A DNA stretch of 64,000 nucleotides from Thermoleophilia bacterium (GCA_040776965.1 JAXGZO010000001.1:396675-460674); one strand, 5' to 3'. Shown: positions 6,782 to 21,489, numbered from the stretch's first letter. Made by a program: numbers and translations. The notes: generated from the letters alone by a model not told the origin.

Positions 6782-7306
6782 CTAGAGGGCTTCTTCGGTC
6801 GGCTCGTCGGCGGCGTAAGGAAGAAGCGCCGACTCACCGCTCGTCATCGCGTCGAAGGCCTTCGCCTTGAGGCGCTCCCTGGTCTCCTCAATACGGCGTC
6901 GCATCTTCATCTGTTGGTCGACGACGCCGTCTTCTTCCGGGGACCCCTCAGAGGAATCGGGGGAGACGGTGGGAGCGAAAGTCTCGGCGAAGTCGGGAGC
7001 TTCGGGAGCTCCTTCGCTGACGACGGTCGGCTCCGCCGGCGAAGCCTCCACGACGATCACCGACTCATCTGCAGCCGCCGGCTCATCTATGCTCGCGGGA
7101 CCCTGCCACGGAGAACCCCCCTCAGGCCCTGGCCACGCGGAGTTCTCCTCGGGGGTGGGAAACTGATCTGGTGCGGCGGTGAGCAGGCGCCCACTCGCAG
7201 CGCCGAGCAAGCGCTTGCACATCCCCTTACCGCTCTTCGAGGTAAAGAAGATCGCCGCCCCCACGCCGAGCGCGATTCCCGCAATATAGTTGACTAGCCG
7301 CCGCAT
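6782..7306 (-). CDS. YtxH/DUF948-like stress protein with an acidic Pro/Glu-rich tail
   Basis: MRRLVNYIAGIALGVGAAIFFTSKSGKG is the YtxH-type N-terminus. RBS AAGGAGACGGGA precedes the ATG at 7306. The C-terminal region is low-complexity and acidic. Confidence 0.55.
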   Translation of the reverse strand: MRRLVNYIAGIALGVGAAIFFTSKSGKGMCKRLLGAASGRLLTAAPDQFPTPEENSAWPGPEGGSPWQGPASIDEPAAADESVIVVEASPAEPTVVSEGAPEAPDFAETFAPTVSPDSSEGSPEEDGVVDQQMKMRRRIEETRERLKAKAFDAMTSGESALLPYAADEPTEEAL

Positions 7307-7395
7307 TCCCGTCTCCTTATCTCCCCGCGAACTGAAACAGAACCGTACGCCACCTGCGCGCTTCAATCCACCACACCCTCACTGAAGTCGTACCT

Positions 7396-7794
7396 TCAGG
7401 CGAGGCGCTGCACTGAGAGTTGGTCGTCGCCAACGGGGGAGACCACCACGACCCAACGAACGCCGTACAGGCGCGTAACCGCAACGCCAGCCTCGCCCAA
7501 CGCCCCACTCGCCCCCTGCTCGACGAACGCGGAGGAGGGGACCATACGTCGGTTCTCGATCTGCACCCGCAGTCCTTCTTCCGTCTGCTTGAGGAGGATG
7601 GGCTCTCCGCTGAGCTGACGCAGCACCGCCACACTCTGCGGCGAGAACTGGACGGTCGCACGGGCACCGGCGAGAGCCCACGGTGCCTCATCGTCCGCAC
7701 CGCGCTTCACCCGCCGCCCGTAGAGCCAGCCCCCAATGAACAACGCGAGGACGCCGAAGAGGAAGAGGAGAGCGAAGAGCACGGCGCTACTCAC
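7396..7794 (-). CDS. Small membrane-anchored hypothetical protein (GTG start overlapping the rarA stop)
   Basis: GTG AGT AGC GCC GTG CTC... gives [28 protein letters not shown] (one TM helix), then a roughly 100-aa soluble domain. GC3 is high. It shares a frame with track ORF 7396..8070, whose upstream part runs antisense to rarA. Confidence 0.4.
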   Translation of the reverse strand: MSSAVLFALLFLFGVLALFIGGWLYGRRVKRGADDEAPWALAGARATVQFSPQSVAVLRQLSGEPILLKQTEEGLRVQIENRRMVPSSAFVEQGASGALGEAGVAVTRLYGVRWVVVVSPVGDDQLSVQRLA

Positions 7795-9103
7795 GACCCC
7801 TCCGCTCCGCGAGACGCTCCGCCATAGCCACCTCCGCCCCCGTAATGGGTGTGTAGTACCTCCGCCCGGCGAGGCGCTCGGGGAGGTACTGCTGCTCCAC
7901 CCACCCGCCGGAGCGGTGAGGGTAGAGGTAGCCCTCTCCGTGGCCGAGCTCCTTTGCCCCGCGGTAGTGCGCGTCGCGCAGGTGCGGGGGCGGCGGCTCG
8001 TTGCCCGCGCGCCGCACCTCGCTGAGCGCCGCGTCGATCGCCACAATGGCGGCGTTACTCTTGGGCGCAAGCGCGAGGTAGGTCGCCGCTTGACTCAAGT
8101 TTATGCGACACTCCGGCAGCCCCACCACCTCGACCGCCCGCGCAGCGGCTACAGCCACCTGCAGCGCCTGCGGGTCGGCATTGCCCACGTCTTCGCTCGC
8201 GAAGATGATCATGCGGCGCGCGATGAACTTGGGGTCCTCGCCGCCGGCGATCATGGACGCCAGGTAGTACACGGCGGCGTCGGGGTCGCTCCCCCGCATG
8301 GATTTAATGAACGCCGAGGTGGTGTCGTAGTGGGCGTCGCGGCGGTCGTAGGCGACCGGGTGCTTTTGGGCTGCATCGCGGAGGTCGTCGACGGTGAGCA
8401 TGACCGGCTCGCCCGAGGGCGAACCGCCGCCGCGCGCGCGCCACGCGGCCTCCACCGCGTTGAGCGCAACGCGCGCATCGCCGCGAGCGACCTCCACCAA
8501 AAAAGAGGGCGCCTCCTCGTGAAGCGCAACGCCCGCGCCCCCCAACCCGCGCTCGGCGTCGGTGAGCGCCATCTGCACCACACGCTCCACGGCCTCCGAG
8601 GGGAGCGGCTCAAACCGGTAGAGCCGGCAGCGGCTGATAAGCGCTGCGTTGACCTCGAAGTAAGGGTTCTCGGTCGTGGCGCCGATGAGGGTGAGCACGC
8701 CGTCCTCGAGGGCGTGCAGGAGCGCGTCCTGCTGCCCTTTATTAAAGCGGTGGATCTCGTCGATAAAGAGGAGTGTCTGCGCCGCACTAAAGGAGCGCGC
8801 CTCGCGCGCTCCTTGAATAGCCGAGCGTACATCGGCCGTACCGGAGCTGATGGCCGAGAGCTCCACAAAGCGCACGGCCGTCTCGGCCGCTATGACCCGC
8901 GCGAGCGTGGTCTTGCCGCACCCCGGAGGCCCGAAGAAGATGGCGGAGAAGGGCCGGCCGGCTTCGACCGCGGCCCGCAGTACCGTCCCCGGCCCCACGA
9001 GGTGCTCTTGCCCGACGAACTCGGCGAGCGAGCGTGGGCGCATGCGCGCCGCGAGCGGCGCCTCAGCGGCGGCTTGTTCGTCGTTCTGTGAGAAGAGGTC
9101 CAT
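7787..9103 (-). CDS. rarA: Replication-associated recombination protein A (AAA+ ATPase, MgsA/RarA)
   Basis: 438 aa. It has a Walker A (GPPGCGKTT), a Walker B ([10 protein letters not shown]), and the MgsA C-terminal region ([21 protein letters not shown]). Confidence 0.9.
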
Positions 9104-9120
9104 GGTCAGCTAAGGATAAA

Positions 9121-9150
9121 GGGGCGGGGTGCCTGCGGCGCCGCCCCCTC
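9121..9150 (-). terminator. GC-rich hairpin downstream of pilin gene A
   Basis: GGGCGGGGTGCCTGCGGCGCCGCCCC is an imperfect inverted repeat lying between the rarA start and the pilin A stop. Confidence 0.4.
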
Positions 9151-9172
9151 GCCCTCCACCCAAACACGTGCG

Positions 9173-9622
9173 TTAGGGCACGGTGATGATGGCGTTAGGG
9201 GAGGGGCCGGCCGCATTTTTACCCCAACCGGTGAGGCTGAAGACCTTATCCGTCACGCCGGTTCGCTTATAGAAGTAGTTGCCCTGCCAATCTGTTGCGG
9301 TAGTGGTAGGGGTAGGCTGCTTCCGGATCATAAAAGTGCTCTTCTTCCAGGGATTCTTAGGCCAGGGGCTCACGTAGTCGCCAACAGCTTTATCGTTCTC
9401 GACATCGCTTGACTCCGGGTAGATATCGTTGTTGTCCACCGCGAAGGTCTGCACGCCTATCTGAATGCTGTGCACCCCCGACTTCACCGCGGCCTCTTTG
9501 GCCTTATCGCGCTGCCCGAGGAACATAGGGATGGCGATGGCGCTGAGGATGCCGATGATGATGATAACCACCAGCAGCTCGATGAGGGTGAACCCGGCTT
9601 TGCCCTTTGTGAACCGTTTCAT
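9173..9622 (-). CDS. Type IV pilin paralog A (class III signal peptide; pilin/pseudopilin N-terminal methylation motif)
   Basis: MKRFTKGKAGFTLIELLVVIIIIGILSAIAIPMFLGQRDKAKEAAVKSGVHSIQ, with a G|F cleavage site and Glu at +5. It has the central YVSPWPKNPW motif and the C-terminal IITVP. Confidence 0.85.
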   Translation of the reverse strand: MKRFTKGKAGFTLIELLVVIIIIGILSAIAIPMFLGQRDKAKEAAVKSGVHSIQIGVQTFAVDNNDIYPESSDVENDKAVGDYVSPWPKNPWKKSTFMIRKQPTPTTTATDWQGNYFYKRTGVTDKVFSLTGWGKNAAGPSPNAIITVP

Positions 9623-9937
9623 GAATGCTCTCCTCTCCCGCAGCGCTTAATGCCCTCGCCTGCGAAAGTTTTATTCTCGTATCTGCATCTTCCTTCGGCA
9701 GAACCGGCGAAAACCTAAAGGCGCACGGGGCCTGAAGGGCGGGCGGCGTAGCCCACCCGCATCTTTACTCTACCCGGCTTTCCTTAATTCGGACGGAGGG
9801 CGAAGCGATTCCCGCTGGCATACAGCGAAACGCGCATCGAAACGGCGAGAGCTGAGCGTAACCTGAGGGCCAGGGCACGGACACATGCAGGCCCCTATCC
9901 TTATCCCGTAAGGCGAGGGTAAGGGGCTAATAGCACA

Positions 9938-9975
9938 AAGGGGCGGGGCGCCGTAGGCACCCCGCCCCTTTGTGT
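9938..9975. terminator. Bidirectional Rho-independent terminator-like hairpin
   Basis: AAAGGGGCGGGGCGCCGTAGGCACCCCGCCCCTTTGTG has a roughly 11-bp stem flanked by an A-tract on one side and a T-tract on the other. Confidence 0.55.
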
Positions 9976-9978
9976 GTT

Positions 9979-10011
9979 CTCGCCCGCCGCGGCTACGCCG
10001 GGCGGCGAGGG
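9979..10011. repeat. Pilin-associated conserved GC-rich 3' stem-loop repeat (copy 1 of at least 4 clear copies)
   Basis: CTCGCCCGCCGCGGCTACGCCGGGCGGCGAGGG lies immediately 3' of the pilin B stop. Near-identical copies occur at 10638-10668, 12481-12511 and 18234-18265 (reverse complement, 3' of pilin I). Degenerate versions occur 3' of pilins D and G. Confidence 0.7.
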
Positions 10012-10023
10012 CTGATGTGCAGA

Positions 10024-10533
10024 TTAGGGGACGGTGATAACAGGGGCAGTCTTGCCGTAGCCGATGAGCTGGAAGCCCGTGTTACTATCTTTGGCTACAT
10101 AGTAAAAGTTGCCCCTCGCTGCATCCGCATTGGCCTCCCTGCTCGGCGTGACATTAACCATCCCCTCATTCGTCCACGGGTTCTTCGGCCACGGGCTCAC
10201 ATAAGTGGAGCCGTACATGACTCGCGAAGGAGGTAGGGAAATGAGAGCGACCTCAGAGATGCTCGCCACGGTGAGAACTCCGGTCGCGGTGTCGTCTTCC
10301 GTAGCCTCTTTCTCCTGCAACTCATCGGGGTAGAGGTCGTTGTTATCCACCGCATACGACTGCACGCCCACCTGAAGGTTGTGGATGCCCGACTTCACCG
10401 CGGCCTCTTTTGCCTTATCCCGCTGCCCGAGGAACATAGGGATAGCGATGGCGCTGAGAATGCCGATGATGATGATAACCACCAGCAGCTCGATGAGGGT
10501 GAAGCCCCCCTGGCCCTTTGCGAAGCGCTTCAT
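10024..10533 (-). CDS. Type IV pilin paralog B
   Basis: The start is MKRFAKGQGGFTLIELLVVIIIIGILSAIAIPMFLGQRDKAKEAAVKSGIHNLQ. It has YVSPWPKNPW and ends VITVP. Track ORF 10024..10578 includes a spurious 5' extension. Confidence 0.85.
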   Translation of the reverse strand: MKRFAKGQGGFTLIELLVVIIIIGILSAIAIPMFLGQRDKAKEAAVKSGIHNLQVGVQSYAVDNNDLYPDELQEKEATEDDTATGVLTVASISEVALISLPPSRVMYGSTYVSPWPKNPWTNEGMVNVTPSREANADAARGNFYYVAKDSNTGFQLIGYGKTAPVITVP

Positions 10534-10680
10534 TGGTACTCTCCTTTTTCTTTCGCTCACGGAGCTCGGTGCCCTCACCTGCGAGAGCGTTGTGCTGTGC
10601 CTAGGTCTTTTTTCGGCAGAACGAGCGAAGAACTAAAGGGGCGGGGCGGCTACGCCGGGCGGCGAGGGCTAAGGTCTGGC

Positions 10681-11118
10681 TTAGGGGACGGTGATGATGG
10701 CCGCCTTCTCTGTCTTGCCGCAGCCCCAGAGGGTGAAGCTGTCAGTACCCGTGGTGTAGGCGAAGTCACCCTTCGTGAGGGAAGCCGTCGTATTTCCTTT
10801 ATTAGCCATGGGCGAGCTCTCCGTCCATGGATTCTTCGGCCACGGGCTCACGTAGGTTGTGCCGAGGGCGCCGGTGGACGTAACCGGATCAGATTCATCA
10901 TTACCAGCAGTGGGATAAGCATCATTATTATCAACTGCATACGACTGCACGCCCACCTGGATGTTGTGGATGCCCGACTTCACCGCGGCCTCTTTGGCCT
11001 TATCGCGCTGCCCGAGGAACATAGGGATGGCGATGGCGCTGAGGATGCCGATGATGATGATGACCACCAGCAGCTCGATGAGGGTGAAGCCCCCCTGGCC
11101 CTTTGCGAAACGCTTCAT
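10681..11118 (-). CDS. Type IV pilin paralog C
   Basis: The ATG at 11118 gives MKRFAKGQGGFTLIELLVV...SPWPKNPW...AIITVP. RBS GAGAGGAGTATCAC lies upstream. Confidence 0.85.
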   Translation of the reverse strand: MKRFAKGQGGFTLIELLVVIIIIGILSAIAIPMFLGQRDKAKEAAVKSGIHNIQVGVQSYAVDNNDAYPTAGNDESDPVTSTGALGTTYVSPWPKNPWTESSPMANKGNTTASLTKGDFAYTTGTDSFTLWGCGKTEKAAIITVP

Positions 11119-11330
11119 GTGATACTCCTCTCGCTCTTGTGGCGTGGTAGCGTCTCTCGTCTTCTGCGAGAGCTCCCTTTTTCGATCTCTGACGCTTCTT
11201 TCGGCAGAACGGGTGAAAAACTGTAGAGAACGTTGTCTCTCCCGCTCTGCCCGCCTCATCGTTTTACCCTCAGCTCACGGATTTGCGGGGCGAGACGGGG
11301 CTTCTGGCGGGCGGCGAGCTCGCACCGCAC

Positions 11331-11801
11331 TTACTGACCGACGGTGATGAGGCCGGTGCTACCGTCTTTTCCGTACCCGGTGAGCGTATAGCTCGTCCTC
11401 TCCGAGCTGACGGTATAGACAAAGTGGCCTCGCCTATGTTGAGGCTCCAGTGGCGTCTTCATATTCATCATCACCTCGTCAGCCCAGGGATTCATCGGCC
11501 ACGGGCTGACGTAGGAAGCGCCGACGTTGAGCCCTTCCAAAAAGCTCGGCAAGTCCGAATTCCCGTCCTCATCCCTGTCGTACATCACTTCCTTCGGATA
11601 CAAGTCGTTGTTATCCACCGCGTACGAATGTATGCCTACCTGGAGGCTGTGGATGCCCGACTTAACCGCAGCCTCTTTGGCCTTATCCCTCTGCCCGAGG
11701 AACATGGGAATAGCGATGGCGCTGAGGATGCCGATGATGATGATAACCACCAGCAGCTCGATGAGGGTGAAGCCCCCCTGGCCCTTACTGAAACGCTTCA
11801 T
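11331..11801 (-). CDS. Type IV pilin paralog D
   Basis: MKRFSKGQGGFTLIELLVVIIIIGILSAIAIPMFLGQRDKAKEAAVKSGIHSLQ...SPWPMNPW...LITVGQ. Confidence 0.85.
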   Translation of the reverse strand: MKRFSKGQGGFTLIELLVVIIIIGILSAIAIPMFLGQRDKAKEAAVKSGIHSLQVGIHSYAVDNNDLYPKEVMYDRDEDGNSDLPSFLEGLNVGASYVSPWPMNPWADEVMMNMKTPLEPQHRRGHFVYTVSSERTSYTLTGYGKDGSTGLITVGQ

Positions 11802-11848
11802 ATACCTCTCCCTCCCGCTGATACCATAACCCCGTTGAGATGAGAGCC

Positions 11849-12334
11849 CTACGGAACGGTGATGATCCAGCTGACTCCACTGCCAACCGAAACCGTGCCG
11901 CCCCCCCGAAGCTTGTATGCCTCCTCTGGATCGGGCGAACCCGCGAACCAGTACATGTAGTTGCCCTTATGTGACTTCGCCGCACCCGTCCACCCAAGCT
12001 CGCTCGCCATGCCTGGCATGCTGCCATCATTGGGATAGCGGGCCATCTTCGCACCCGTCCAGGGGTTTTTGGGCCACGGGCTGACGTACTTAGCCACCGA
12101 CCCGGTAGGCTGCACCGCCATCGGGGAGGGGTACTTATCGTCGTTGTCTGCGGCGGCGGCCTGCACGCCCACCTGGATGTGGTGGATACCGGCCTTAACC
12201 GCCGTGTTGCGCGCCCGCTGCCGCTGCACGAGGAACATGGGTACGGCGATCGCCGTGAGGATGCCGATGATGATGGTGACCAGGAGCAGCTCGATGAGGC
12301 TGAAGCCCCCCTGGCCTTTTGCACGCCTCCTCAC
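11849..12334 (-). CDS. Type IV pilin paralog E (most divergent N-terminus; GTG start)
   Basis: V/MRRRAKGQGGFSLIELLLVTIIIGILTAIAVPMFLVQRQRARNTAVKAGIHHIQ...SPWPKNPW...WIITVP. RBS AAGAGGAGG is present. The gene lies only 47 bp downstream of the paralog D start. Confidence 0.8.
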   Translation of the reverse strand: MRRRAKGQGGFSLIELLLVTIIIGILTAIAVPMFLVQRQRARNTAVKAGIHHIQVGVQAAAADNDDKYPSPMAVQPTGSVAKYVSPWPKNPWTGAKMARYPNDGSMPGMASELGWTGAAKSHKGNYMYWFAGSPDPEEAYKLRGGGTVSVGSGVSWIITVP

Positions 12335-12439
12335 AACTACCTCCTCTTATCCAAACGGAGCTCCCGTAAACGCCGCATTATTACTCTACCCAGCTTCGCA
12401 GAGCTCGGACACTCGTACACAATGCCACCAACGCACCAG

Positions 12440-12469
12440 TGGGCGGGGCACCTGCGGCACCCCGCCCCC
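12440..12469. terminator. GC-rich terminator-like hairpin
   Basis: GGGCGGGGCACCTGCGGCACCCCGCCCC is a near-perfect inverted repeat. Confidence 0.5.
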
Positions 12470-12513
12470 TCGCGTTGCCCCTCGCCCGCCGCAGCTACGC
12501 CGGGCGGCGAGCC

Positions 12514-12960
12514 TTAGCTGCCTGCCGGCCCTACTGGCACTGATTCCGTCTTGGGGGTACCGACCGTGATGATGGCGGTACCGGCGGTTTTGCCGTAACC
12601 GGTGAGGAGGAAGGTACCGGAGCCCAGGGTGTAGCTGTACTGGCCCTTGCCTGTACCCGCGGTCATCAGCTTATTGTCCCACGGGTTCTTAGGCCACGGA
12701 TTCACGAGGTTGCCGACGGCGCCGGTGCTTGCAACCTCTGTTGCTGCCGGGTACGTATCGTTGTTGTCCACCGCGTACGTCTGTATGCCCACCTGAATGT
12801 TGTGGATGTTGGACTTCACTGCGGCCTCTTTGGCCTTATCGCGCTGCCCGAGGAACATGGGGATGGCGATGGCGCTGAGCTTGCGAGAGCCTTATGGAGT
12901 ACCTGGATCTTCTTTCGGCAAAACGGGCGAGGAGCTAAAGCAGCTGCACCCTCCATGGAC
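12514..12960 (-). pseudogene. 5'-truncated type IV pilin paralog F (an internal deletion removed the start codon, signal peptide and N-terminal helix; the leader is retained)
   Basis: The conserved leader box CTCTCGCAAG is joined directly to ...CTCAGCGCCATCGCCATCCCC (LSAIAIP). The first in-frame start is an internal ATG giving MFLGQRDKAKEAAVKSNIHNIQ..NPWPKNPW...AIITVGTPK. The conserved upstream motif CGTTTTGCCGAAAGAAG is still present at 12908-12925. Confidence 0.7.
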
Positions 12961-13015
12961 CGCTGGGGGCCTGGATGTGGTGATGATGCCCCGGACGGGC
13001 TACGGCGCGGAAGAC

Positions 13016-13453
13016 TTAGGGTTTCTGACCGAATTCGATCACTTTGCTCTTATTATATCCGTAGCCGCAGAGGGAGAAGCCCACCCTCGTACTGGCTGTT
13101 TGCGGGATGTAGTTGTAGTGACCCCGAACCGCTACCCCAGGAGGAACAGGTATATTCGCCATCGGCTTACCATCCCGCCAGGGGTCTGTTGGCCACGGGC
13201 TGACGAGCTTGCCAACCGCTCCGGTGCTCGCAACGTCGACCTTCGGCGGGTACAAATCCTTGTTGTCCACAGCGTACGTCTGCACCCCCACGTAGATGTG
13301 ATGAACAGCCGTCTTAACGGCGGCGTCTCTCGCCCTCTCCTTCTGCCTGAGATACAGGGGCGTAGCGATGGCGGCCAGGATGCCGATGATGATGATGACC
13401 ACGAGCAGCTCAATGAGGGTGAAGCCCCTCTGACCTTTTGTGACGCGCTTCAT
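13016..13453 (-). CDS. Type IV pilin paralog G
   Basis: The ATG at 13453 gives MKRVTKGQRGFTLIELLVVIIIIGILAAIATPLYLRQKERARDAAVKTAVHHIY...SPWPTDPW. Confidence 0.8.
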   Translation of the reverse strand: MKRVTKGQRGFTLIELLVVIIIIGILAAIATPLYLRQKERARDAAVKTAVHHIYVGVQTYAVDNKDLYPPKVDVASTGAVGKLVSPWPTDPWRDGKPMANIPVPPGVAVRGHYNYIPQTASTRVGFSLCGYGYNKSKVIEFGQKP

Positions 13454-13612
13454 ATGCCTCTCCCTCCTGCTGATACCGCAACCCCCGTCGCCACGAAAGC
13501 TTGTTGAGGTGTCTCTTTCTTCTTTCGGCGAATCCACGGAGAAGTTGAGCGACCTCGGCAGGCCCCCGTCGTCTCCGCGTAAACCGCACCGCCTCCACGC
13601 CAGCAGCGTGCG

Positions 13613-14000
13613 CTAGGGAACGGTGATAACGCCCCCGGTGGAGCCGACGCCGATGAGGACGTAAGAGGTGGGCGTTGCGAGGGGCTTTGGGTTGTACACA
13701 AACGTGCCTTTGTTCGGCTTACCCCCCGACCCCGGGATATTAGTGCCATTGTTATAGACCGTGGTGGAGCGCCCCATGGGCACATGCGGAACGTGCCCCC
13801 ATGGATTCTCAGGCCAGGGGCTGACGAGCTTGCCGACTTTTGCAGTCTTCGCAACCTCAGCTTGTACAGGGTAGGTATCGTTGTTCTCGACCGCGTACGT
13901 GTGGATGCCCACCTGAATACTGTGGATGCCCGACTTAACTGCGGCGTCCTTTGCCTTCTCCCTCTGCCCGAAGAACAGAGGGATGGCGATGGCGGCGAGG
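13613..14000 (-). pseudogene. N-terminally truncated type IV pilin paralog H (no start codon; the break falls inside the conserved N-terminal helix)
   Basis: The open frame after a TAG reads ...SFIGILAAIAIPLFFGQREKAKDAAVKSGIHSIQVGIHTYAVENND...SPWPENPW...GVITVP. There is no ATG/GTG/TTG before the internal GTG at 13912 (the track ORF start). The upstream DNA is the rmlA promoter region. Confidence 0.65.
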
Positions 14001-14085
14001 ATGCCAATGAAGCTGAATGCGCGGCAAATGGGCCTCTTTTCGGGGGAGCGATGCTATACTCCATGCAAACTCCAGCGAGGTCGCC

Positions 14086-15150
14086 ATGAAGGGACTCATC
14101 TTGAGCGGCGGCGCGGGCACACGCCTACGCCCCATTACGCACACCTCGGCCAAGCAGCTCGTACCCGTGGCCAACAAGCCGGTGCTCTTTTACGGCCTGG
14201 AGGCCATGTACGCCGCGGGCATCCGCGAGGTCGGCATCGTCGTGGGCAGCACCCGCGCGGAGATCGAGGAGGCGGTCGGCGACGGCAGCCGCTTCGGGCT
14301 CAGCGTCACGTACCTCCCGCAGGAGGCGCCGCTGGGCCTCGCCCACGCAGTGCTCATCAGCGAGGCCTTTCTCGGCGACGAGCCCTTTGTGATGTACCTC
14401 GGCGACAACCTCCTCAAAGAGGGCATAGAGCCGTTCGTGCGTGCTTTTAACGAGCATCGCCCGGATTCACTGATCTTACTGCAGCGGGTCGACGACCCCA
14501 GCTCGTACGGCATCGCGGAGCTCGACGCGGAGGGCCGCGTCACCCAGCTCGTGGAGAAGCCAGCCGAGCCGCGCAGCGACCTCGCGCTGGTGGGCGTGTA
14601 CCTCTTCACCCCGGCCATCTTCGAGAGCGTTAAGGCCATCTCGCCCTCCGCCCGCGGCGAGCTCGAGATAACCGACGCCATTCAGCACCTCATCGAGCGC
14701 GGCCTCCGCGTCGACCCCCACACGGTCACGGGCTGGTGGAAAGACACGGGCAAGCTGGAGGACATGCTCGAGGCCAACCGCCTCATCCTTAACACCATCA
14801 CTCGCGACCTGCGTGGCACCGTTATCGATAGCCTCATTGAGGACGCGGTACAGGTGGGCGAGGGGAGCGTGCTCGAGCGCTGCAGCGTGCGCGGCCCAGT
14901 GGTCATAGGCCGCAACTGCCGCATAACCGACGCCTACGTCGGCCCCTACACGGCCATCGGCGACGACGTAGTGGTGGAGCGCGCCGAGCTGGAGCACTCG
15001 ATCCTCCTCGAGGAGAGCTGCATCCGCCGCCTCGGCGCACGCCTCACCGACAGCCTCGTCGGCCGAAACTGCACGATAGAACACAGCGACGCGCCGCCGG
15101 TAGCGTACCGGTTTATGATCGGCGACTCCTGCCAGATCGGCCTCCCCTGA
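14086..15150 (+). CDS. rmlA: Glucose-1-phosphate thymidylyltransferase (long form with a C-terminal beta-helix)
   Basis: MKGLILSGGAGTRLRPITHTSAKQLVPVANKPVLFYGLE is the canonical RmlA N-terminus. Track ORF 14017 is 5'-extended. Confidence 0.9.
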   Translation: MKGLILSGGAGTRLRPITHTSAKQLVPVANKPVLFYGLEAMYAAGIREVGIVVGSTRAEIEEAVGDGSRFGLSVTYLPQEAPLGLAHAVLISEAFLGDEPFVMYLGDNLLKEGIEPFVRAFNEHRPDSLILLQRVDDPSSYGIAELDAEGRVTQLVEKPAEPRSDLALVGVYLFTPAIFESVKAISPSARGELEITDAIQHLIERGLRVDPHTVTGWWKDTGKLEDMLEANRLILNTITRDLRGTVIDSLIEDAVQVGEGSVLERCSVRGPVVIGRNCRITDAYVGPYTAIGDDVVVERAELEHSILLEESCIRRLGARLTDSLVGRNCTIEHSDAPPVAYRFMIGDSCQIGLP

Positions 15151-15175
15151 GCGCATCGCACGAGAGAGGAGCCCC

Positions 15176-15664
15176 ATGATCCACGGCGTGATGACGAAGA
15201 ACCTCCGAGTGGTCCCCGACGAACGCGGACGCCTCATGGAGTGCCTCCGCAACGACGACGACCTCTTTATTCAGTTCGGCCAGCTCTACATGACGACCAC
15301 CTACCCCGGCGTCGTTAAAGGCTGGCACCTCCACGACGCACAGTGGGACAACATCGTCTGTGTTAAGGGCATGCTCAAACTCGTGTTGTGCGACGGCCGC
15401 GGGGCCGAAGGCGACGCGGCCGCTCCCGGCCACGCGGCGAGCCCCACCGCCGGCGAGATTCAAGAGTTCTTTATCGGCGAGTACAAGCCCATGCTCGTCC
15501 GCGTACCACCGGGCGTGTGGCACGGCTGGAAGTGCGTGAGCGTTGAGGAGGCCTACGTCGTCAACGCCCCCACCGAGACCTATAAGTACGACACGCCCGA
15601 CCAGCGCGAGCTGCCGCACAACACGCCCGCTATTAACTACGACTGGGGCGTCCGACTGCGCTAG
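15176..15664 (+). CDS. rmlC: dTDP-4-dehydrorhamnose 3,5-epimerase (cupin)
   Basis: 162 aa. RmlC-like motifs are present (RGRLMECLR...GWHLH...). It sits between rmlA and rmlD. Confidence 0.75.
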   Translation: MIHGVMTKNLRVVPDERGRLMECLRNDDDLFIQFGQLYMTTTYPGVVKGWHLHDAQWDNIVCVKGMLKLVLCDGRGAEGDAAAPGHAASPTAGEIQEFFIGEYKPMLVRVPPGVWHGWKCVSVEEAYVVNAPTETYKYDTPDQRELPHNTPAINYDWGVRLR

Positions 15665-15684
15665 CGCGCGGCCGGAGCACGCAC

Positions 15685-16560
15685 ATGCTGCGCTGGTTTA
15701 TCACGGGCGGCGGCGGCCAGCTCGCCACCGCGTTCGCCGAGCGACTCACCGGCGAGGTCTTTCTCAGCCGCGAGGAGACCCTCGACATACGCAACGCGGC
15801 GGCCGTGGCCGCGGCGATCCACAGCTTCGCCCCCCACGTCGTGCTGCACACCGCCGCCTTCACCGACGTGGACGGCGCGGAGGCAACCTCCGCGGCCGCG
15901 GAGGTTAATGTAGACGGCACGCGCAACATCGTTAACGCCGTGCGCGGCAGCTCCACGGCGGTCATCTCCTTCAGCACCGACTACGTCTTCGACGGCACCA
16001 AAGGCGCTCCGTACGTGGAGAGCGACGCGCCGAGGCCGCTCAACGCCTACGGCCGCACCAAGTTGCTCAGCGAGGAGATCGTGCTGAGCTGGGCGCACGG
16101 CACCGTTATACGCACCTCGTGGCTCTTCAGCGAGACCGGCCGCAACTTCGTAAAGACGATCCTCGCCGCCGGCCGCCAAAAGGCCGCGGCGGGCGAGCCC
16201 CTTCGCGTCGTCGACGACCAGGTGGGCTCCCCCACGTACGCCGGCCACCTCGCCGCCGGCGTTGAGGAGGCCGTCCTCGGCGACCTCGCGCCCGGCCTCT
16301 ACCACATGGCGGGCGGCGGCTGGTGCTCGTGGCGAACCTTCGCCGCCCAGATCCTCCACGACGCCGGCATCGCCGCAGAGGTCCTGCCCATCACCACGGC
16401 CGAGCTGGGCCGACCGGCGGCGCGCCCGGCGTTCTCCGCCCTTATCAGCGAGCGCGGCGCCCCGCAGCTGCCGCACTGGCGAGAGGGCACCGCCCTCGCG
16501 GTCCAGGCCCTCACCAAGGATGACCGACGCCCCCCACACACCGAGGAGACGCACCCATGA
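15685..16560 (+). CDS. rmlD: dTDP-4-dehydrorhamnose reductase
   Basis: 291 aa. MLRWFITGGGGQLATAF...STDYVFDG is the RmlD signature. Confidence 0.85.
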   Translation: MLRWFITGGGGQLATAFAERLTGEVFLSREETLDIRNAAAVAAAIHSFAPHVVLHTAAFTDVDGAEATSAAAEVNVDGTRNIVNAVRGSSTAVISFSTDYVFDGTKGAPYVESDAPRPLNAYGRTKLLSEEIVLSWAHGTVIRTSWLFSETGRNFVKTILAAGRQKAAAGEPLRVVDDQVGSPTYAGHLAAGVEEAVLGDLAPGLYHMAGGGWCSWRTFAAQILHDAGIAAEVLPITTAELGRPAARPAFSALISERGAPQLPHWREGTALAVQALTKDDRRPPHTEETHP

Positions 16561-17564
16561 AGCTCGTGGTCACCGGCGGCGCCGGGTTTATAGGCTCCAA
16601 CTTCATCCTCCACATGCTGAGGCGCCACGCCGACATCGAGATCGTCAATCTCGACAAGCTCACCTACGCCGGCAACCTCGAGAACCTCCGCGAGGTGGAG
16701 GCCGACGAGCGCTACTCCTTCGTTAAGGGCGACATCTGCGACGCGGCGCTCGTGCGCCGGGCGCTGCGCGGCGCGGACGCCGTCGTTAACTTCGCCGCGG
16801 AGACCCACGTCGACCGCTCCATCAGCGGGCCACAAGACTTCATCCGCACCGACGTACTGGGCACGCAGACCCTCCTGGAGGCGGTGCGCGAGTTCGGCAT
16901 CGCCCGCTACCTGCAAATCAGCACCGACGAGGTGTACGGCTCCACGGAGGTGGGCTCCTTCGGCGAGCACGACCCGCTGAACCCCTCGAGCCCCTACTCG
17001 GCCAGCAAAGCCGCCGGCGACCTGCTCGTGCTGGCTTACGCCACCACGTACGGCACGCCGGCGCTCATCACCCGCAGCTCCAATAATTACGGGCCGCGGC
17101 AGTACCCCGAAAAGCTCGTGCCGCTCTTTATCACCAACGCGGTCGACGACCTGGCGCTCCCGGTGTACGGCGACGGCCAGCAAATACGCGACTGGATCTA
17201 CGTCGACGACAACTGCGCCGGCATCGAGGCCGTGCTCCTCAACGGCACCGACGGCGAAATTTACAACATCGGGGGCGGCAACGAGGTCGCCAACCTCACC
17301 ATCACCGGGGAGATCCTGCGCCTGCTCGAGAAGGGCGACGAGCTCATCCGCTACGTCGCCGACAGACCCGGGCACGACCGCCGCTACTCCATTAGCTGCG
17401 CCAAGGCCCACGCCCTCGGCTGGCGGCCGGAGGTGCCCTTCGCGGTCGGCCTCGAGCGCACCGTGGCGTGGTACCGCGACAACCCGCAGTGGTGGCGCCC
17501 CATTAAGTCGGGGGAGTGGCGAGCGTACTACGAGGCGCAGTACCCCGAGGTGGGGCGAGCATAA
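16557..17564 (+). CDS. rmlB: dTDP-glucose 4,6-dehydratase
   Basis: MKLVVTGGAGFIGSNF; YSASKAAGDLL (the YxxxK of extended SDRs). Its start overlaps the rmlD stop (ATGA). Confidence 0.9.
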   Translation: MKLVVTGGAGFIGSNFILHMLRRHADIEIVNLDKLTYAGNLENLREVEADERYSFVKGDICDAALVRRALRGADAVVNFAAETHVDRSISGPQDFIRTDVLGTQTLLEAVREFGIARYLQISTDEVYGSTEVGSFGEHDPLNPSSPYSASKAAGDLLVLAYATTYGTPALITRSSNNYGPRQYPEKLVPLFITNAVDDLALPVYGDGQQIRDWIYVDDNCAGIEAVLLNGTDGEIYNIGGGNEVANLTITGEILRLLEKGDELIRYVADRPGHDRRYSISCAKAHALGWRPEVPFAVGLERTVAWYRDNPQWWRPIKSGEWRAYYEAQYPEVGRA

Positions 17565-17788
17565 CCGAGTGAGTGAGGGCGGGGCGAAGAAGCGGCGCTC
17601 GCTCAGCTCTGCTTTTGAATCCGAGTACATTCCCCTGTCCGAACTTCGGGAAGATGGGCAGAGTAAGAGAGACAACGTTGCCTACAGTTTTTCACCCGTT
17701 CTGCCGAAAGAAGCGTCAGAGATCAAAAAGGGGGCTCTCGCACAAGACGAGAGACGCTACCACGCCACAAGAGCGAGAGGAGTATCAC

Positions 17789-18220
17789 ATGAAGCGTTTC
17801 GCAAAGGGCCAGGGGGGTTTCACCCTCATCGAGCTGCTGGTGGTTATCATCATCATCGGCATCCTCAGCGCCATCGCTATCCCTATGTTCCTCGGGCAGC
17901 GCGATAAGGCCAAAGAGGCCGCGATGAAGTCCGGTATCCACAGCATCCAGGTGGGCGTGCAGAGTTATGCCGTGGACAACAACGATGTGTATCCGTCGGC
18001 TGCAGCAAGCGGTGGCGATATTCTTGCTGCAGATAAAACCAAAGTCCAAGCGCTCGTGAGCCCGTGGCCGAACAACCCGTGGAGTACTAGCAGCGCTGCG
18101 ATGACGGGCACGGCAGCCGGGGCGAAGGGCGACTATACCTACGCGACGGCAACCGACAGCTTTAGTCTTAAAGGCTGGGGTAAAAGTAGCACCACCGCCC
18201 CCATCATCACCGTCCCCTAA
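17789..18220 (+). CDS. Type IV pilin paralog I (only copy on the + strand)
   Basis: MKRFAKGQGGFTLIELLVVIIIIGILSAIAIPMFLGQRDKAKEAAMKSGIHSIQ...SPWPNNPW...PIITVP. Its 5' leader and first roughly 190 nt are about 95% identical to the reverse complement of paralog C. Confidence 0.85.
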   Translation: MKRFAKGQGGFTLIELLVVIIIIGILSAIAIPMFLGQRDKAKEAAMKSGIHSIQVGVQSYAVDNNDVYPSAAASGGDILAADKTKVQALVSPWPNNPWSTSSAAMTGTAAGAKGDYTYATATDSFSLKGWGKSSTTAPIITVP

Positions 18221-18295
18221 GCAACACCGCAAGCCTCGCCGCCCGGCGTAGCCGCGGCGGGCGAGAGCACGCGAAGGGGCCGCAGTAAGCCCCTC

Positions 18296-18345
18296 GCAAG
18301 CAAAAGGGTCGAGTTCGCAACTGCGAACTCGACCCTTTTGCTTGC
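18296..18345. terminator. Perfect 23-bp-arm palindrome (bidirectional terminator candidate)
   Basis: GCAAGCAAAAGGGTCGAGTTCGC-AACT-GCGAACTCGACCCTTTTGCTTGC. Both arms are exact reverse complements. Confidence 0.5.
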
Positions 18346-18450
18346 GCTCTCGAAGACGGGCGTATACGCCGAGTGGCTCACTCAGTGCGTTGCCTCGGGA
18401 GGGGAAGAGCCGAGGGGTGCCCCTCAAAGCTACCCCCCTGCGAGGAAAAA

Positions 18451-18491
18451 AGAGCCGCCCTGTAGCCGTAAGGATGCTACAGGGCGGCTCT
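18451..18491 (-). terminator. Rho-independent terminator of the SLH/NlpC-P60 gene
   Basis: It has 15-bp perfect arms (AGAGCCGCCCTGTAG / CTACAGGGCGGCTCT) and an 11-nt loop. On the minus strand it is followed by TTTTTT. Confidence 0.6.
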
Positions 18492-18643
18492 TCTGCGAAG
18501 GCGTACCTTTACGCCACCGTCTCTCGTCGCTACTTGCTCCACACCCCTTAATGCTCGCCTTCCCGGCCTTCTTAGGGCATGCGAGATGCACTTTACGAGC
18601 TTCTTGCCGCTCTTGATCTCGACCCCGGGGTAGCCGAGACCGA

Positions 18644-19846
18644 CTAGAGCTTGAGCTCGGCCGGCGTGAGCACCCGCCGGCCCCAGGCGAAGTACTGCTT
18701 GTAGTACGGCGTCTTGTCGAGTGAATTAAGGGTGACGCCAGCACTCGAGGAGCTCCTTGAGGAGCTAGTAGAGTGGATAAACCACCCGTTGCCGAGGTAC
18801 AGCCCGGCGTGGTAGATCTCCTGCTTCGCGACGCTCGACTTGGGGCCGTTGCGCCCGAAGAAGATGAGGTCGCAGCCCTTGAGCTGCGCGCGGGTAATGC
18901 GGGGTTTGGCCCGCGCGGCCATATCGTTGGCGCCGCGCTCGTTAACCGGGTACCCAAACCGCATCTTCATGAGGTAGAAGACGAACCCGGAGCAGTCGAA
19001 CCCACCGCTCGCCTGGTAGCCGTAAGGTGAGTTCTCGGTGGGGTACTCGCCCCCCCATACGTACGGGTAGCCGATGTATTTAAAGGCGACCTCCATGATC
19101 TGCCGCTGCCGGGCGCTGAGAGGCGGAAACTCGATCGTCTTAAAGTCGCCGAGGTAGAGCGGGTACCACTTGCCACTCACCGCGTAGCCGCGGGAGATGA
19201 GGTTGGCGGCCTCGGCCCTGTTGAGCGGCTCGGTGGGCACGAGCTCGCGGTCATCGTTCTGCGCGAGATGATTAAATCGCAGCTGAAGCTGCCGCGAGGC
19301 AACGACGAAGGGGAGGTAGGAGGGCGCGCGGGTGTTCCAGCCCTTATTGGGCCGCCAGCGGGTGGGGTACAGCGTGGTGAGCAGCCCCCAGTTGTAGCTT
19401 GGGTACCGCAGCTTGAGCCACCGCACCACACCTACCTCAGCCTGCCACGTCAGTACGGGGCCCTCCGGGTTAAACTTGCCGTCTTTGGCGAGCACCAAAA
19501 ACCCTAAGCGAAGCGCCATCTGGACGGTACGGTACGAGGGGTGGGAGGGCGGGATGTCGACGACGTTGACCGGGTTCTTCACGGGGACGCCCTCGCGTTT
19601 TGCGGCGCGCACCATCGCGGTGGCGAACTGCAACCTCGTTAGCGGCCGCTGCGGCGCGAAGAGCTTGCCGTAGTCGGTGAGAAGCCGTTTGTCGGTAACA
19701 TCGTCGATCTGGTCGTGAGCCCAGTGCGTGGCGGGGACGTCGGAGAAAGTCGTGGCGTGCACCCGAGGAGCGGCGCCGAGGAAGAGGCCGGCGACACCGA
19801 GAAGACAAACGACGACGATGACGAATTTGTAATGAAGTGCGTGCAT
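18644..19846 (-). CDS. SLH-domain cell-wall hydrolase, NlpC/P60 family
   Basis: The start is MHALHYKFVIVVVCLLGVAG (signal/TM). The SLH motif is TFSDVPATHWAHDQIDDVTD. The C-terminal NlpC/P60 region is GGFDCSGFVFYLM...HAGLYLGNGWFIHS (Cys-His). Track ORF 18644..20059 is 5'-extended. Confidence 0.75.
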   Translation of the reverse strand: MHALHYKFVIVVVCLLGVAGLFLGAAPRVHATTFSDVPATHWAHDQIDDVTDKRLLTDYGKLFAPQRPLTRLQFATAMVRAAKREGVPVKNPVNVVDIPPSHPSYRTVQMALRLGFLVLAKDGKFNPEGPVLTWQAEVGVVRWLKLRYPSYNWGLLTTLYPTRWRPNKGWNTRAPSYLPFVVASRQLQLRFNHLAQNDDRELVPTEPLNRAEAANLISRGYAVSGKWYPLYLGDFKTIEFPPLSARQRQIMEVAFKYIGYPYVWGGEYPTENSPYGYQASGGFDCSGFVFYLMKMRFGYPVNERGANDMAARAKPRITRAQLKGCDLIFFGRNGPKSSVAKQEIYHAGLYLGNGWFIHSTSSSRSSSSAGVTLNSLDKTPYYKQYFAWGRRVLTPAELKL

Positions 19847-19980
19847 ACGTCTACCTTGCGCGTATTCGCCACCGACGGCCAATCTCCTGTAGGGTCGCCT
19901 TCGGTGGGTCAGCGCGGTAGTCTCTTGTGTTCCACTGCAGGATATCAGAGCTTCACGGGCGTTTCTTGGAGGTACAGGTG

Positions 19981-21489
19981 ATGACGACGAAACCGCAGAG
20001 CACCACCACACCCAAACGCACCCGGTCGGCCGCCGCGGCCCGCTGGTGCCGTATTGCAACCCTCACCGCACTCACCGCGCTCGTGGCGGCCTCCCCGGCG
20101 CTCGCGGGCACCGAGACCAAGTTCACCATCTCCGGCAAGGGTTGGGGCCACGGCATCGGCCTCTCGCAATGGGGCGCCTACGGGTTCGCCAAGCACGGCT
20201 GGAAGTACGACCGCATTCTCGCGCGCTACTACAAAGGCACCTCGCTCAAGCGCATGAGCTTCGCCCCTATGCGCGTGCTCCTCAAGAGCGGCCTCACGAG
20301 CGCCAAGGTCACCTACTCCACGCAGTACACCGCCTCGGGCGGCGGTAAGAGCATGACGATCCCCGCCAATACCGTAGCCGTCACGACCTACGCGAGAAAC
20401 CTCTACACCGTAACGGCCGGCTCCAAAAAAGAGACTTTCTCCTCCGCCGTCACCTTTAAATCGCCCAAAAACATCATGAATGTACGCACGCCGAGCGACA
20501 TGAACGTCGTCGGCCTCTACCACGGCACGATCACCGTCGCCCTCTACAACGGAAAGCTCGCGATCGTCAACACCGTGCCCATGGAGAACTTCACCTGCTC
20601 CAACATCTCGCACGAGGTGAGCGGCTCATGGCCGGCGGAGGCGATCAAGGCCCAGGCCTGCGCGGCGCGCTCCTATGCTGCACGGGTCGCCATGGGGGCG
20701 CCGAAGGGGCGTATCTTCGACGTGTACTGCGACACGCGGCGCGCGCAGACCTATACCGGTATCGGCCACGAGCACCCGGCCATCAACGCCGCCGTGCGGG
20801 CAACCGCCGGCATCGGGCCCGTCTACAACGGCGCGCCCATCTCCGCCTTCTACTTCGCCTCCTCCGGCGGCTACACCGAGAACATCGAGTACGGCTGGTG
20901 GCCGGGCGGCTCCCCCATCCCCTACCTCAAGGGGGTACGCGACCCGTACGATACGTACGCCTCGCGCCACACGTGGGGGCCCTTTACCTTTACACAGAGG
21001 GCCGCGACCGCCTCGCTGGGCGGCGACGTGCGCGGGGATCTACGCGCCATTACCACCGTGCGCCGCGGCGTCTCACCCCGCACCGTGCAGGCGGCCGTGG
21101 TGGGCAGTAAGGGCACCACGCTCATCGGCGGCAACGCGTTGCGCGTAAAACTCGGCCTCTACAGCACGTGGCTGTCGATCCGCAGTATGGCCATAAGCCC
21201 CGCGGCGGGCGACAAAAAGAGGGTGACCCCAGGCACAAAGGTCACCCTCTCCGGTCGCACGTACCCGGGAATCGCCACCGGGGGCATCGTCACGCTCAAC
21301 TCCTACTACAACGGCGCATGGCACACCCAGCGCGTAACGACCACGCGCTCCAGCACCCCCCTGCCGGGGGGCAAGAGCGCGAGCTTCTCGTCGTACAAGG
21401 CGACCGTCACGGTGCGGAGCACCACGAGGTACTACTGGTCGTACGGCGCCACAACCTCGCCGTCCACGACCATCACTACGACGAGGTGA
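19981..21489 (+). CDS. SpoIID/LytB-domain protein (amidase enhancer-like)
   Basis: The start is MTTKPQSTT after GGAGG. The signal peptide is ALAGTET. The SpoIID signature is GKGWGHGIGLSQWGAYGFA. The C-terminal region is Thr/Ser-rich. Confidence 0.8.
   Translation: MTTKPQSTTTPKRTRSAAAARWCRIATLTALTALVAASPALAGTETKFTISGKGWGHGIGLSQWGAYGFAKHGWKYDRILARYYKGTSLKRMSFAPMRVLLKSGLTSAKVTYSTQYTASGGGKSMTIPANTVAVTTYARNLYTVTAGSKKETFSSAVTFKSPKNIMNVRTPSDMNVVGLYHGTITVALYNGKLAIVNTVPMENFTCSNISHEVSGSWPAEAIKAQACAARSYAARVAMGAPKGRIFDVYCDTRRAQTYTGIGHEHPAINAAVRATAGIGPVYNGAPISAFYFASSGGYTENIEYGWWPGGSPIPYLKGVRDPYDTYASRHTWGPFTFTQRAATASLGGDVRGDLRAITTVRRGVSPRTVQAAVVGSKGTTLIGGNALRVKLGLYSTWLSIRSMAISPAAGDKKRVTPGTKVTLSGRTYPGIATGGIVTLNSYYNGAWHTQRVTTTRSSTPLPGGKSASFSSYKATVTVRSTTRYYWSYGATTSPSTTITTTR

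Follow-up and report, generated by a model that had tools for sequence, protein, structure and literature searches.

Inverted 5' ends of two type IV pilin paralogues around a resident rml operon look like a by-product of gene-family duplication and copy-correction

Introduction

Do two type IV pilin genes that stand head-to-head across some 6.4 kb, and whose 5' ends are nearly the same sequence in inverted orientation, form a genetic switch, or is the repeat a passive trace of the way the gene family has evolved? The question is raised by a stretch of 64 kb (64,000 nucleotides, hereafter the window) on a 1.66-Mb contig of an uncultured Thermoleophilia-like member of the Actinomycetota from an anaerobic digester; to our knowledge, type IV pili have been little studied in this bacterial group. 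A preliminary description of the locus had reported the repeat, had pointed out that recombination between its arms would invert the intervening DNA, and had viewed the present gene order as the product of such an event. The reading favored here, at a probability of roughly 70%, is that the repeat consists of shared pilin 5' ends lying on either side of a resident rml operon, with no dedicated switch.

The pilin array and the rml operon

Nine pilin copies (A to I) are located in the window, and at least two further copies are present on the same contig. Seven of the nine are full-length and have a start codon, a signal peptide, and a ribosome binding site. Six of these lie on the minus strand: pilin A (9173-9622, 149 aa), B (10024-10533, 169 aa), C (10681-11118, 145 aa), D (11331-11801, 156 aa), which is separated from the upstream E by 47 nt and lacks a separate leader, E (11849-12334, 161 aa, with a GTG start), and G (13016-13453, 145 aa). 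The seventh, pilin I (17789-18220, 143 aa), is the sole plus-strand copy, as the strands of the ORFs bear out. Only F and H, both on the minus strand, are truncated: F (about 12514-12879) has a 5' deletion that fuses its leader to ...LSAIAIPMFLGQ, H (13613-14035) is cut off at about codon 20, with 48 nt between its end and the start codon of rmlA, and neither has a start codon or signal peptide. Type IV pilins are recognized by an N-terminal G/F-x-x-x-E motif (the slash marking cleavage) followed by a hydrophobic helix, and this is what is found here, the N-terminus reading MKRFAKGQGG/FTLIELLVVIIIIG with cleavage at G/FTLIELL. The prepilin motif scored 33-34 bits with PF07963 (cut-off 21.2) and 25-39 bits with TIGR02532 (cut-off 16.3), and the closest solved structures are pilins.

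No type IV pilus assembly genes (PilB/T/C, prepilin peptidase, PilMNO) were found in the 64-kb window. In the nearest relative genome the pilins are part of a type IV pilus cluster about 1 Mb from rarA, and homologous pilins of relatives (L160, L089) are located in complete clusters. The close metagenome relatives all have two or three pilins, in direct orientation only. A sigma factor gene is found inside the pilus cluster of the closest relative. The second pilins of the relatives had at one point appeared to be headless, as tblastn matches in 14 metagenome loci began at residue 32; the L089 pilin is nonetheless full-length with a signal peptide, and the apparent truncation was rejected as an artefact of HSP trimming.

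The array is interrupted by rmlA (14083-15150), rmlC (15176-15664), rmlD (15685-16560), and rmlB (16557-17564), all on the plus strand and identified with Pfam. These genes are collinear with those of two relatives, L003 and L004, and are bracketed by two synteny anchors on the minus strand, rarA/mgsA on the left (7787-9103) and an NlpC/P60-SLH gene on the right (18644-20059). Both relatives have the arrangement SpoIID-NlpC/P60-rmlBDCA-rarA, in the order and orientation seen in the window, with no pilins at this site; their RarA proteins are 70-78% identical to that of the window, and nucleotide homology to the window is limited to 14082-17549. Since these relatives, which lack pilins at this site, show the same order and strands, the orientation of the rml operon is ancestral. 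This synteny comparison, which had been proposed as a check, runs counter to the notion that the present layout arose by inversion between C and I. Such an inversion would also not account for the interruption of the array, as reversing it gives {A,B,C}-rml-{H..D,I}, with rml still in between. An inversion history behind the truncation of H was rejected on similar grounds, because any single inversion that yields the present layout flips rml from its ancestral orientation, and a role for rml as a pilin-glycosylation partner was discarded because the relatives retain rml at the same site without pilins. In the favored reading, the rml operon is the resident, in its ancestral orientation, and pilin cassettes were added on both sides of it.

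The inverted repeat and its two layers

The inverted pair of about 320 bp at the 5' ends of pilins C and I is real. Its arms extend over 10905-11252 (minus strand; leader 11119-11252 plus the first ~71 codons of C) and 17656-18002 (plus strand; leader 17656-17788 plus the first ~71 codons of I), and global alignment of 17656-18002 against 11252-10905 gave 320 identical positions in 348 columns (92.0%), or 93.1% over the span first described (to 17985). A repeat search returned two hits, 10905-11182/17725-18002 (278 nt, 92%) and 11175-11252/17656-17733 (78 nt, 91%), which represent a single repeat divided by a 1-nt indel. The entire leader, GAGAGACAACGTT...CACATG, was found by alignment in both arms, as had been claimed. 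Within the arms lies a core tract (17668-17958, plus strand, against 11240-10949) that is 95.9% identical (280/292), with the same value of 95.9% for its leader and its coding portion; it stops at codon 57/58, where synonymous differences jump, the following 44 nt are 70.5% identical, and upstream of the arms identity is at the random level of 35%. The longest perfect runs are 74, 45, 43, and 32 nt, and the 28 differing positions are scattered over the whole length. Between the arms are 6,403 nt (11253-17655) that hold pilins D to H and rmlACDB, in agreement with the reported block of about 6.4 kb with five pilin copies and the rml genes, with the qualification that two of the five, F and H, are 5'-truncated. 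The geometry, with C and I head-to-head, is also correct for inversion: with a crossover inside the repeat, 11253-17655 would be inverted and both genes would stay whole.

Assembly mis-joins typically stem from repeat families, and with only one assembly of this organism one might ask whether the leader of I or C is a chimera of collapsed or mis-joined pilin copies. We find this scarcely credible, as the contig is 1.66 Mb long, the spread of the 28 differences along the arms means that these were not collapsed, two relatives show the same rml genes in collinear order, and an independent Logan short-read contig (L001), which is 99.94% identical and runs from rmlD through rmlB to 12 nt into the I arm, confirms the rmlB-leader junction.

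The repeat is less exclusive to C and I than its length suggests. The repeat search also paired pilin I, in inverted orientation, with A, B, and D (206-208 nt, 87-90%), and the 170-nt coding part that is common to the family is 86-94% identical between I and these three. Identity over the full leader, in turn, is 0.91 for C and I and 0.44-0.61 for every other pilin pair, so that the portion specific to C and I is the leader of about 130 nt only. Over codons 1-57 the differences among pilins A, B, C, D, and I come to just 7-24 nt in 171, whereas synonymous differences approach saturation over codons 58-70, although the protein sequence there (QSYAVDNND.YP) remains conserved. Between C and I, synonymous changes at codons for identical amino acids number 5 in 55 before codon 58 and 7 in 11 after it (Fisher p = 2e-4). 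The locus thus displays the low-divergence tract, sharp boundaries, and low synonymous divergence by which homogenized paralogues of the tuf type are recognized. The synonymous jump at codon 58 points to gene conversion as the process that homogenizes the pilin 5' ends, and a 96%-identical non-coding leader beside a diverged 3' half indicates that the C and I arms have recently exchanged sequence.

The repeat is made of two layers, together the common 5' end of two type IV pilin paralogues, which comprises the promoter-leader and the coding sequence for the signal peptide and N-terminal helix. The first layer is the 170-nt coding block, whose near identity across pilins A, B, C, D, and I would be due to selection acting on the helix together with gene conversion. 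The second is the leader of about 130 nt found in C and I alone. It was most likely copied recently, through inverted duplication or gene conversion; the probable donor is an I-type unit and C the recipient, since I has a complete upstream motif and C only a decayed -10 half of it.

The pilin units are mosaics. In pilin I the 5' end is nearest to C and the 3' flank to B, at 73% compared with 36-59% in the other pairs; the family as a whole has a homogenized 5' block, a hypervariable middle, and a conserved 3' end (IITVP plus hairpin). Multiple pilin copies of this construction, some of them 5'-truncated and with signs of gene conversion, bring to mind the pilE/pilS system of Neisseria. On that model the array would be a cassette library whose donors, truncated or lacking a promoter (F, H, and perhaps G), enter expressed loci by recombination at the conserved 5' block and 3' end, and the C/I repeat would be one trace of this process. 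In contrast to a pilE/pilS arrangement of one expression locus and silent, promoter-less, 5'-truncated copies, the array has seven intact genes out of nine, most with a promoter-like block of their own, hence they are not silent. Homology at the 3' end extends over just 55-92 nt (83-89%), F and H may as readily be decaying pseudogenes, and a G4 initiator (G3+N1-7 x4) is absent from both strands of 9000-18600; the host, moreover, is an environmental actinobacterium. A variation system of this kind therefore seems quite improbable.

Putative upstream regulatory sequences

Upstream of pilin I lies a bipartite promoter-like motif, P1, with the sequence GTCCGA-N13-GGGCAGAGT (17637-17664, plus strand), which is also present, on the minus strand, upstream of pilin A (9767-9794) and pilin E (12383-12410). 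The motif of pilin I straddles the edge of the repeat: its -35 half, GTCCGA (17637-17642), falls outside the arm in the segment that an inversion would move, and the arm opens with the 8 nt of its -10 half. Pilin C has no P1 -35 element and only a decayed -10 half, GGGCAGAGC. P1 resembles a SigB/F-type promoter, and in the relatives it is the motif that most consistently stands directly before the riboswitch and pilin.

A second block, TACAGTTT-N12-GCCGAAAG, is present in both arms (17683-17710 on the plus strand in I; twin at 11198-11225 on the minus strand in C) and has the appearance of a sigma-28/WhiG site. WhiG, of the sigma-28 family, controls the type IV pilus genes of Rubrobacter, with a consensus of TAAA at -35 and GCCGATAA at -10, and sites are defined as TAAA-N15-GCCGATAA with at most two mismatches (PMC8325347). 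The C/I block, read as TACA-N16-GCCGAAAG, resembles this flagellar/WhiG consensus but exceeds the limit of two, with three mismatches and a spacing one nucleotide longer. Among the relatives, three loci (L103, L112, L121) have TAAA-N15-GCCGAAAG, with two mismatches, the form TAAAGTCC-N11-GCCGAAAG is found upstream of pilins, and L160 has a perfect consensus site upstream of pilB; the promoter-like block with GCCGAAAG precedes pilins in at least nine metagenome loci. A gene for WhiG itself was not found in the window, and a scan for sigma-70 consensus promoters gave no match. The 5'UTR also contains a 7-bp hairpin, CUCUCGCACAAGACGAGAG (17735-17753, plus strand; C twin 11154-11172, minus strand). 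A structured RNA in the leader was considered and rejected (single-sequence fold z = +0.72; alifold of five paralogues -3.2 kcal/mol with almost no covariation; no Rfam match), and once the leaders of the relatives had been aligned this reading was dropped for that of a promoter.

The leaders of the relatives differ from those of the window. In the relatives a c-di-GMP-I riboswitch stands before every pilin, with 22 matches in 14 related loci and one in L160, whereas the nine-copy array has neither riboswitch nor expression platform: the covariance models (RF01051/RF03167) reached the gathering score nowhere in the window, and even at E<=1 there was no match in 9000-18600. Taken together, the promoter architecture, the sigma factor gene in the pilus cluster of the relative, and the lack of the riboswitch in the array suggest that pilin expression in this genome has been uncoupled from RNA-level control by c-di-GMP.

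Inversion of the block

With arms of 348 nt and perfect runs of up to 74 nt, it is reasonable to consider that the repeat is a working invertible element, in which recurrent homologous recombination between C and I flips the 6.4-kb block and brings about phase or dosage variation. A flip would shift the full P1 and read-through from rml from I to C (and B) and would place I behind E and D, thereby changing which pilins are promoter-proximal. The location of the P1 -35 half within the invertible segment fits this view, as do the lack of a -35 and the decayed -10 at C and the position that P1 so consistently occupies in relatives, just ahead of riboswitch and pilin. Hairpins that follow C and D appear degenerate, which makes read-through plausible. 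Yet C and I each keep, inside the arms, the sigma-28-like block and the full 5'UTR, so that leader, promoter-like block, and ribosome binding site accompany either gene, and B, C, D, E, and I would be downstream of a P1 motif in either orientation, which leaves no ON/OFF outcome of the sort that Piv, Hin, or Fim switches produce. Those switches also have an adjacent recombinase gene, and no recombinase, integrase, or transposase domain was detected in the 30 window ORFs scanned, which include every ORF within 10 kb. Nor does the repeat resemble a shufflon (Rci/sfx, R64 pilV), as it consists of whole gene 5' ends with no short sites and no recombinase. The orientation of rml is the ancestral one, and the 4-8% divergence of the arms is of a magnitude that lowers RecA recombination. 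On balance, a working invertible element appears improbable.

The passive-repeat reading does not require that the block never moves. Given the 74-nt perfect run, RecA-dependent inversion of the 6.4-kb block is possible, if rare, and it would probably be a passive rearrangement of nearly neutral effect, since either gene brings along a promoter block, a 5'UTR, and downstream hairpins of its own; only the P1 -35 half and rml read-through would pass from I to C. Two counterpoints deserve mention. Recent exchange between the arms means that they do recombine, and intermediates of this kind can resolve as crossovers and so produce inversions. Furthermore, passage of the P1 -35 half from I to C could affect regulation if P1 should be the main promoter. 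As to the alternative orientation, exact-protein look-ups of pilins I, C, and D, rmlA, and P0003 returned no other contig, and that of rmlB returned only a 1.7-kb Logan contig ending 12 nt into the I arm, a break that reflects low coverage and is uninformative on inversion, since neither end shares a 31-mer with another copy.

One may also combine the two dynamic scenarios into a recombinase-independent invertible element within a pilin cassette library, where flips would reassign the SigB/F-like P1 and rml read-through between C/B and I, and gene conversion from F, G, and H would diversify the expressed copies. Little credence can be given to this combination; if it is true, the Actinomycetota would gain their first described pilin variation system, one in which the c-di-GMP riboswitch control of the relatives had been shed.

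Comparison with known systems

Inverted type IV pilin genes are known from Moraxella bovis and M. lacunata, where the Piv invertase inverts the tfpQ/tfpI segment. There, one promoter and a constant 5' coding region are joined alternately to two 3' segments through short crossover sites, and the adjacent piv gene is required. The Moraxella system and the present locus have in common inverted type IV pilin genes and a geometry in which inversion would change the pilin sequence linked to upstream expression signals; in the present locus, unlike Moraxella, each of C and I is a complete gene with its own leader, the repeat that they share is long but imperfect, and the ORF scan revealed no recombinase. 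Piv is mentioned in PMC11208160.

A closer parallel is offered by tufA and tufB of Salmonella enterica, inverted duplicates that reportedly evolve in concert through RecA-dependent gene conversion and can give rise to chromosomal inversions. In both cases inverted paralogues have been partly homogenized, apparently by non-reciprocal recombination, a crossover could invert the DNA between them, and there is no dedicated recombinase. The differences are of scale and content: the tract here is about 300-350 nt, against about 1.2 kb in tuf, is more diverged, and comprises only the promoter-leader and N-terminal coding sequence, and the copies are 6.4 kb apart instead of hundreds of kb.

Conclusions

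The C/I repeat looks like a by-product of gene-family duplication and copy-correction, with no dedicated switch. Inverted paralogues with a homogenized 5' end are what a multi-copy gene family ordinarily gives rise to, and their homology could occasionally invert the DNA between them. The locus nevertheless offers a clean example of concerted evolution in the type IV pilin family of an uncultured actinobacterium. Probably more useful than the idea of inversion are the conserved two-motif promoter architecture, with one SigB/F-like and one WhiG-like motif, the sigma factor gene of the relative, and the apparent loss of the riboswitch.

The inverted repeat and its two layers

The 5' ends of pilin C (minus strand) and pilin I (plus strand) do form the inverted repeat that the preliminary description had claimed, with arms at 10905-11252 (-) and 17656-18002 (+) as delimited by repeat search and global alignment. 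The repeat search returned two pairs, 10905-11182/17725-18002 (278 nt, 92%) and 11175-11252/17656-17733 (78 nt, 91%), which represent a single repeat divided by a 1-nt indel. Global alignment of 17656-18002 with 11252-10905 gave 320 identities in 348 columns (92.0%), and 280 in 292 (95.9%) within a core at 17668-17958 and 11240-10949, where leader and coding part are each 95.9% identical. The longest perfect runs between the arms are 74, 45, 43 and 32 nt; over the 48 nt upstream of them, identity is 35%, no more than expected at random. The 6,403 nt between the arms hold, as had also been described, five pilin copies (D, E, F, G and H, minus strand) and the rml operon (rmlA, rmlC, rmlD and rmlB, plus strand), although F and H are 5'-truncated.

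The first layer of the repeat is a family-wide 5' coding block. Codons 1-57 of A, B, C, D and I differ pairwise by 7-24 of 171 nt (C-I 7, B-C 8, B-I 11), so that pilin I also takes part in inverted repeats of 206-208 nt, 87-90% identical, with A, B and D. Directly past codon 57, synonymous differences come near saturation even though the protein keeps its conservation (QSYAVDNND.YP): between C and I, synonymous changes affect 5 of 55 codons for identical amino acids up to codon 57 and 7 of 11 from codon 58 on (Fisher p = 2e-4), and nucleotide differences across the same boundary number 12/292 versus 13/44 (p = 1e-6). Gene conversion that included the inverted copy can, on these sequence comparisons, explain the homogenised 5' block. 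Protein-level selection was considered for the synonymous jump at codon 58 and cannot account for the pattern. Codons 58-68 of pilin C (10905-10950, minus strand) are unusually AT-rich in their synonymous choices (GTT GAT AAT AAT GAT GCT TAT); the other copies all have GTG GAC AAC AAC GAC at these codons, and the genome is 65% GC.

The leader forms the second layer and is common to C and I only (95.9% identity versus 44-61% for every other pair); the variable halves of the two genes are just 60% identical. The 3' flank of pilin I is nearest to that of pilin B (73%), and this pairing of a C-like 5' end with a B-like 3' flank indicates that the units are mosaic. The arms start at GGGCAGAG. At pilin I this sequence makes up the -10 half of a bipartite, conserved motif; at pilin C the bases after it have decayed (GGGCAGAGC), and the -35 half is absent upstream. 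The contrast between this remnant at C and the full motif at I suggests that C received a copy of an I-type 5' end.

The pilin family

All nine copies resemble type IV pilins: they have a G|FTLIELL prepilin site and match PF07963 and TIGR02532 above cut-offs, and among solved structures they come closest to pilins and pseudopilins, matched via the N-terminal helix. The shared plan consists of about 57 near-invariant N-terminal residues, a VSPWPKNPW motif and a G.GK..IITVP end, with hypervariable stretches separating these conserved segments. Pilin F (12514-12954, -) has lost about 125 nt between the leader hairpin and codon ~25, its leader being joined straight onto ...LSAIAIPMFLGQ. Pilin H (13613-14080, -) has lost its first ~20 codons and the entire leader, starts at about codon 20 and has its end 48 nt from the rmlA start codon; start codon and signal peptide are absent from both F and H. 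Downstream of pilins B, F and I is a GC-rich conserved hairpin, CTCGCCGCCCGGCGTAGCCGCGGCGGGCGAG, of which part has been deleted after C and D; a second hairpin, GGGGCGGGG...CCCCGCCCC, with T-rich sequence behind it, is found after A, B and F (3' hairpin elements at 9989-10038, 10646-10695, 12480-12520 and 18228-18262). The array unit is thus leader, coding sequence, hairpin 1 and hairpin 2. The pilin I protein is recorded in identical form from one NCBI contig, of 1,663,882 bp, on which at least two further paralogues lie outside the window, P0003 (135 aa) and P0028 (133 aa), which may be the T4P-cluster copies; the I-specific residues AAMKSGIHSIQVG also occur in P0028.

Leader elements

The bipartite motif, P1 (GTCCGR-N13-GGGYAGAGT), has exactly three mismatch-free sites in the 64-kb window, upstream of A (9767-9794, -), E (12383-12410, -) and I (17637-17664, +), the chance expectation being 0.4 when matches with up to 2 mismatches are counted. 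It likewise precedes pilins of the closest relative genome, at 9712-9739 and 10658-10685 of the T4P cluster locus L160, and those of at least 12 metagenome loci. It resembles SigB/SigF-type promoters (GTTTAA-N12-14-GGGTAT). A SigB/F/G-family sigma gene (8924-9679) lies directly upstream of the pilins in L160, where the order is pilB-pilT-pilC-sigma-pilin-pilin (pilB through sigma at 4531-9679).

A block, TTCTGCCGAAAGAAG, is found 28-64 nt downstream of P1 and, with an upstream TAAAG, resembles the flagellar/WhiG consensus. In Rubrobacter, that consensus (-35 TAAA, -10 GCCGATAA) has been demonstrated to drive type IV pilus genes (PMC8325347). Relatives carry the version TAAAGTCC-N11-GCCGAAAG, and the perfect consensus TAAAGTCC-N11-GCCGATAA stands upstream of pilB-pilT-pilC in L160 (4249-4275), an arrangement that hints at a sigma cascade running from WhiG through a SigF-like sigma to the pilins. 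Both arms in the window, at C and at I, contain TACAGTTT-N12-GCCGAAAG, a candidate WhiG site with 3 mismatches and +1 spacing relative to the consensus, followed by a 7-bp hairpin and then the RBS.

Every pilin copy in relatives has a leader that runs on into a c-di-GMP-I riboswitch (Rfam: 22 matches in 14 related loci, such as L103 at 5535-5609; also L160 at 9748-9825). There is no Rfam match to this riboswitch anywhere in the window, and none of the nine pilins (9000-18600) has one; in alignment the window leaders correspond to the initial ~120 nt of the leader in relatives and lack the ~210-nt aptamer plus platform.

Origin of the layout

The present layout had been viewed as already the product of an inversion, a view that synteny in relatives contradicts. 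The genomes found nearest are MAGs of uncultured Thermoleophilia/Actinomycetota, obtained from anaerobic reactors (RarA 70-79% identical). SpoIID, NlpC/P60-SLH, rmlBDCA and rarA keep the same order and relative strands in two relatives' loci, L003 and L004, as in the window, and nucleotide homology to these covers exactly 14082-17549. Neither 21-kb locus has pilins: the rmlA-rarA gap (L003 7369-10022; L004 7453-10425) is taken by an ABC peptide-/substrate-binding protein gene and an HNH endonuclease gene, and the same gap in the window holds an eight-copy pilin array. The rml block being collinear and on the same strands, its orientation is ancestral, with pilin cassettes added on both sides. 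A hypothetical C/I flip would yield A,B,C / rmlBDCA (minus) / H,G,F,E,D (plus) / I, and by this geometry rml splits the array in either state. The closest relative genome has its pilins within the T4P cluster, ~1 Mb from rarA, so that the array of nine copies here is a secondary locus specific to the lineage.

Origin of the repeat and consequences of inversion

The repeat is probably (roughly 0.7) a passive by-product of pilin paralogy, astride a resident rml operon. Gene conversion would have homogenised the 5' coding block across the family, inverted pilin I included, a single recent event would have copied the leader between C and I, and the rml operon would have stayed put while pilin cassettes were inserted on either side. 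The closest analogue is tufA/tufB, likewise inverted paralogues; such pairs are homogenised by gene conversion and are able to mediate inversion. The C/I repeat does not belong to the Piv, shufflon or pilE/pilS classes.

The preliminary description also proposed that the block could invert, and here the geometry and the evidence of recombination are in its favor: given the 74-nt perfect run and the recent exchange between arms, occasional RecA-type inversion is plausible. In the one existing assembly nothing points to a programmed switch, as no recombinase or transposase domains were found in 30 ORFs scanned across the window and leaders with a WhiG-like block lie in both arms; a G4 motif is likewise absent (9000-18600). 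In every close metagenome relative there are 2-3 pilins, all of them in direct orientation. The Logan short-read contig L001 (SRR27560945) corresponds to window 15965-17667 and confirms the rmlB-leader junction (99.94% over 1.7 kb), ending 12 nt into the pilin I arm. At that identity, this public run contains the source organism or a very close strain.

The WhiG-like block, 5'UTR and RBS lie within the arms for both C and I, and the sole asymmetry is the P1 -35 half (17637-17642), which is inside the invertible segment, so that inversion would deprive I of the complete P1 and of rml read-through and give both to C. Pilins B, C, D, E and I would be downstream of P1 either way, now as E-D-C-B and I and after inversion as E-D-I and C-B, and the expected effect of inversion is therefore at most a change in order or dosage.
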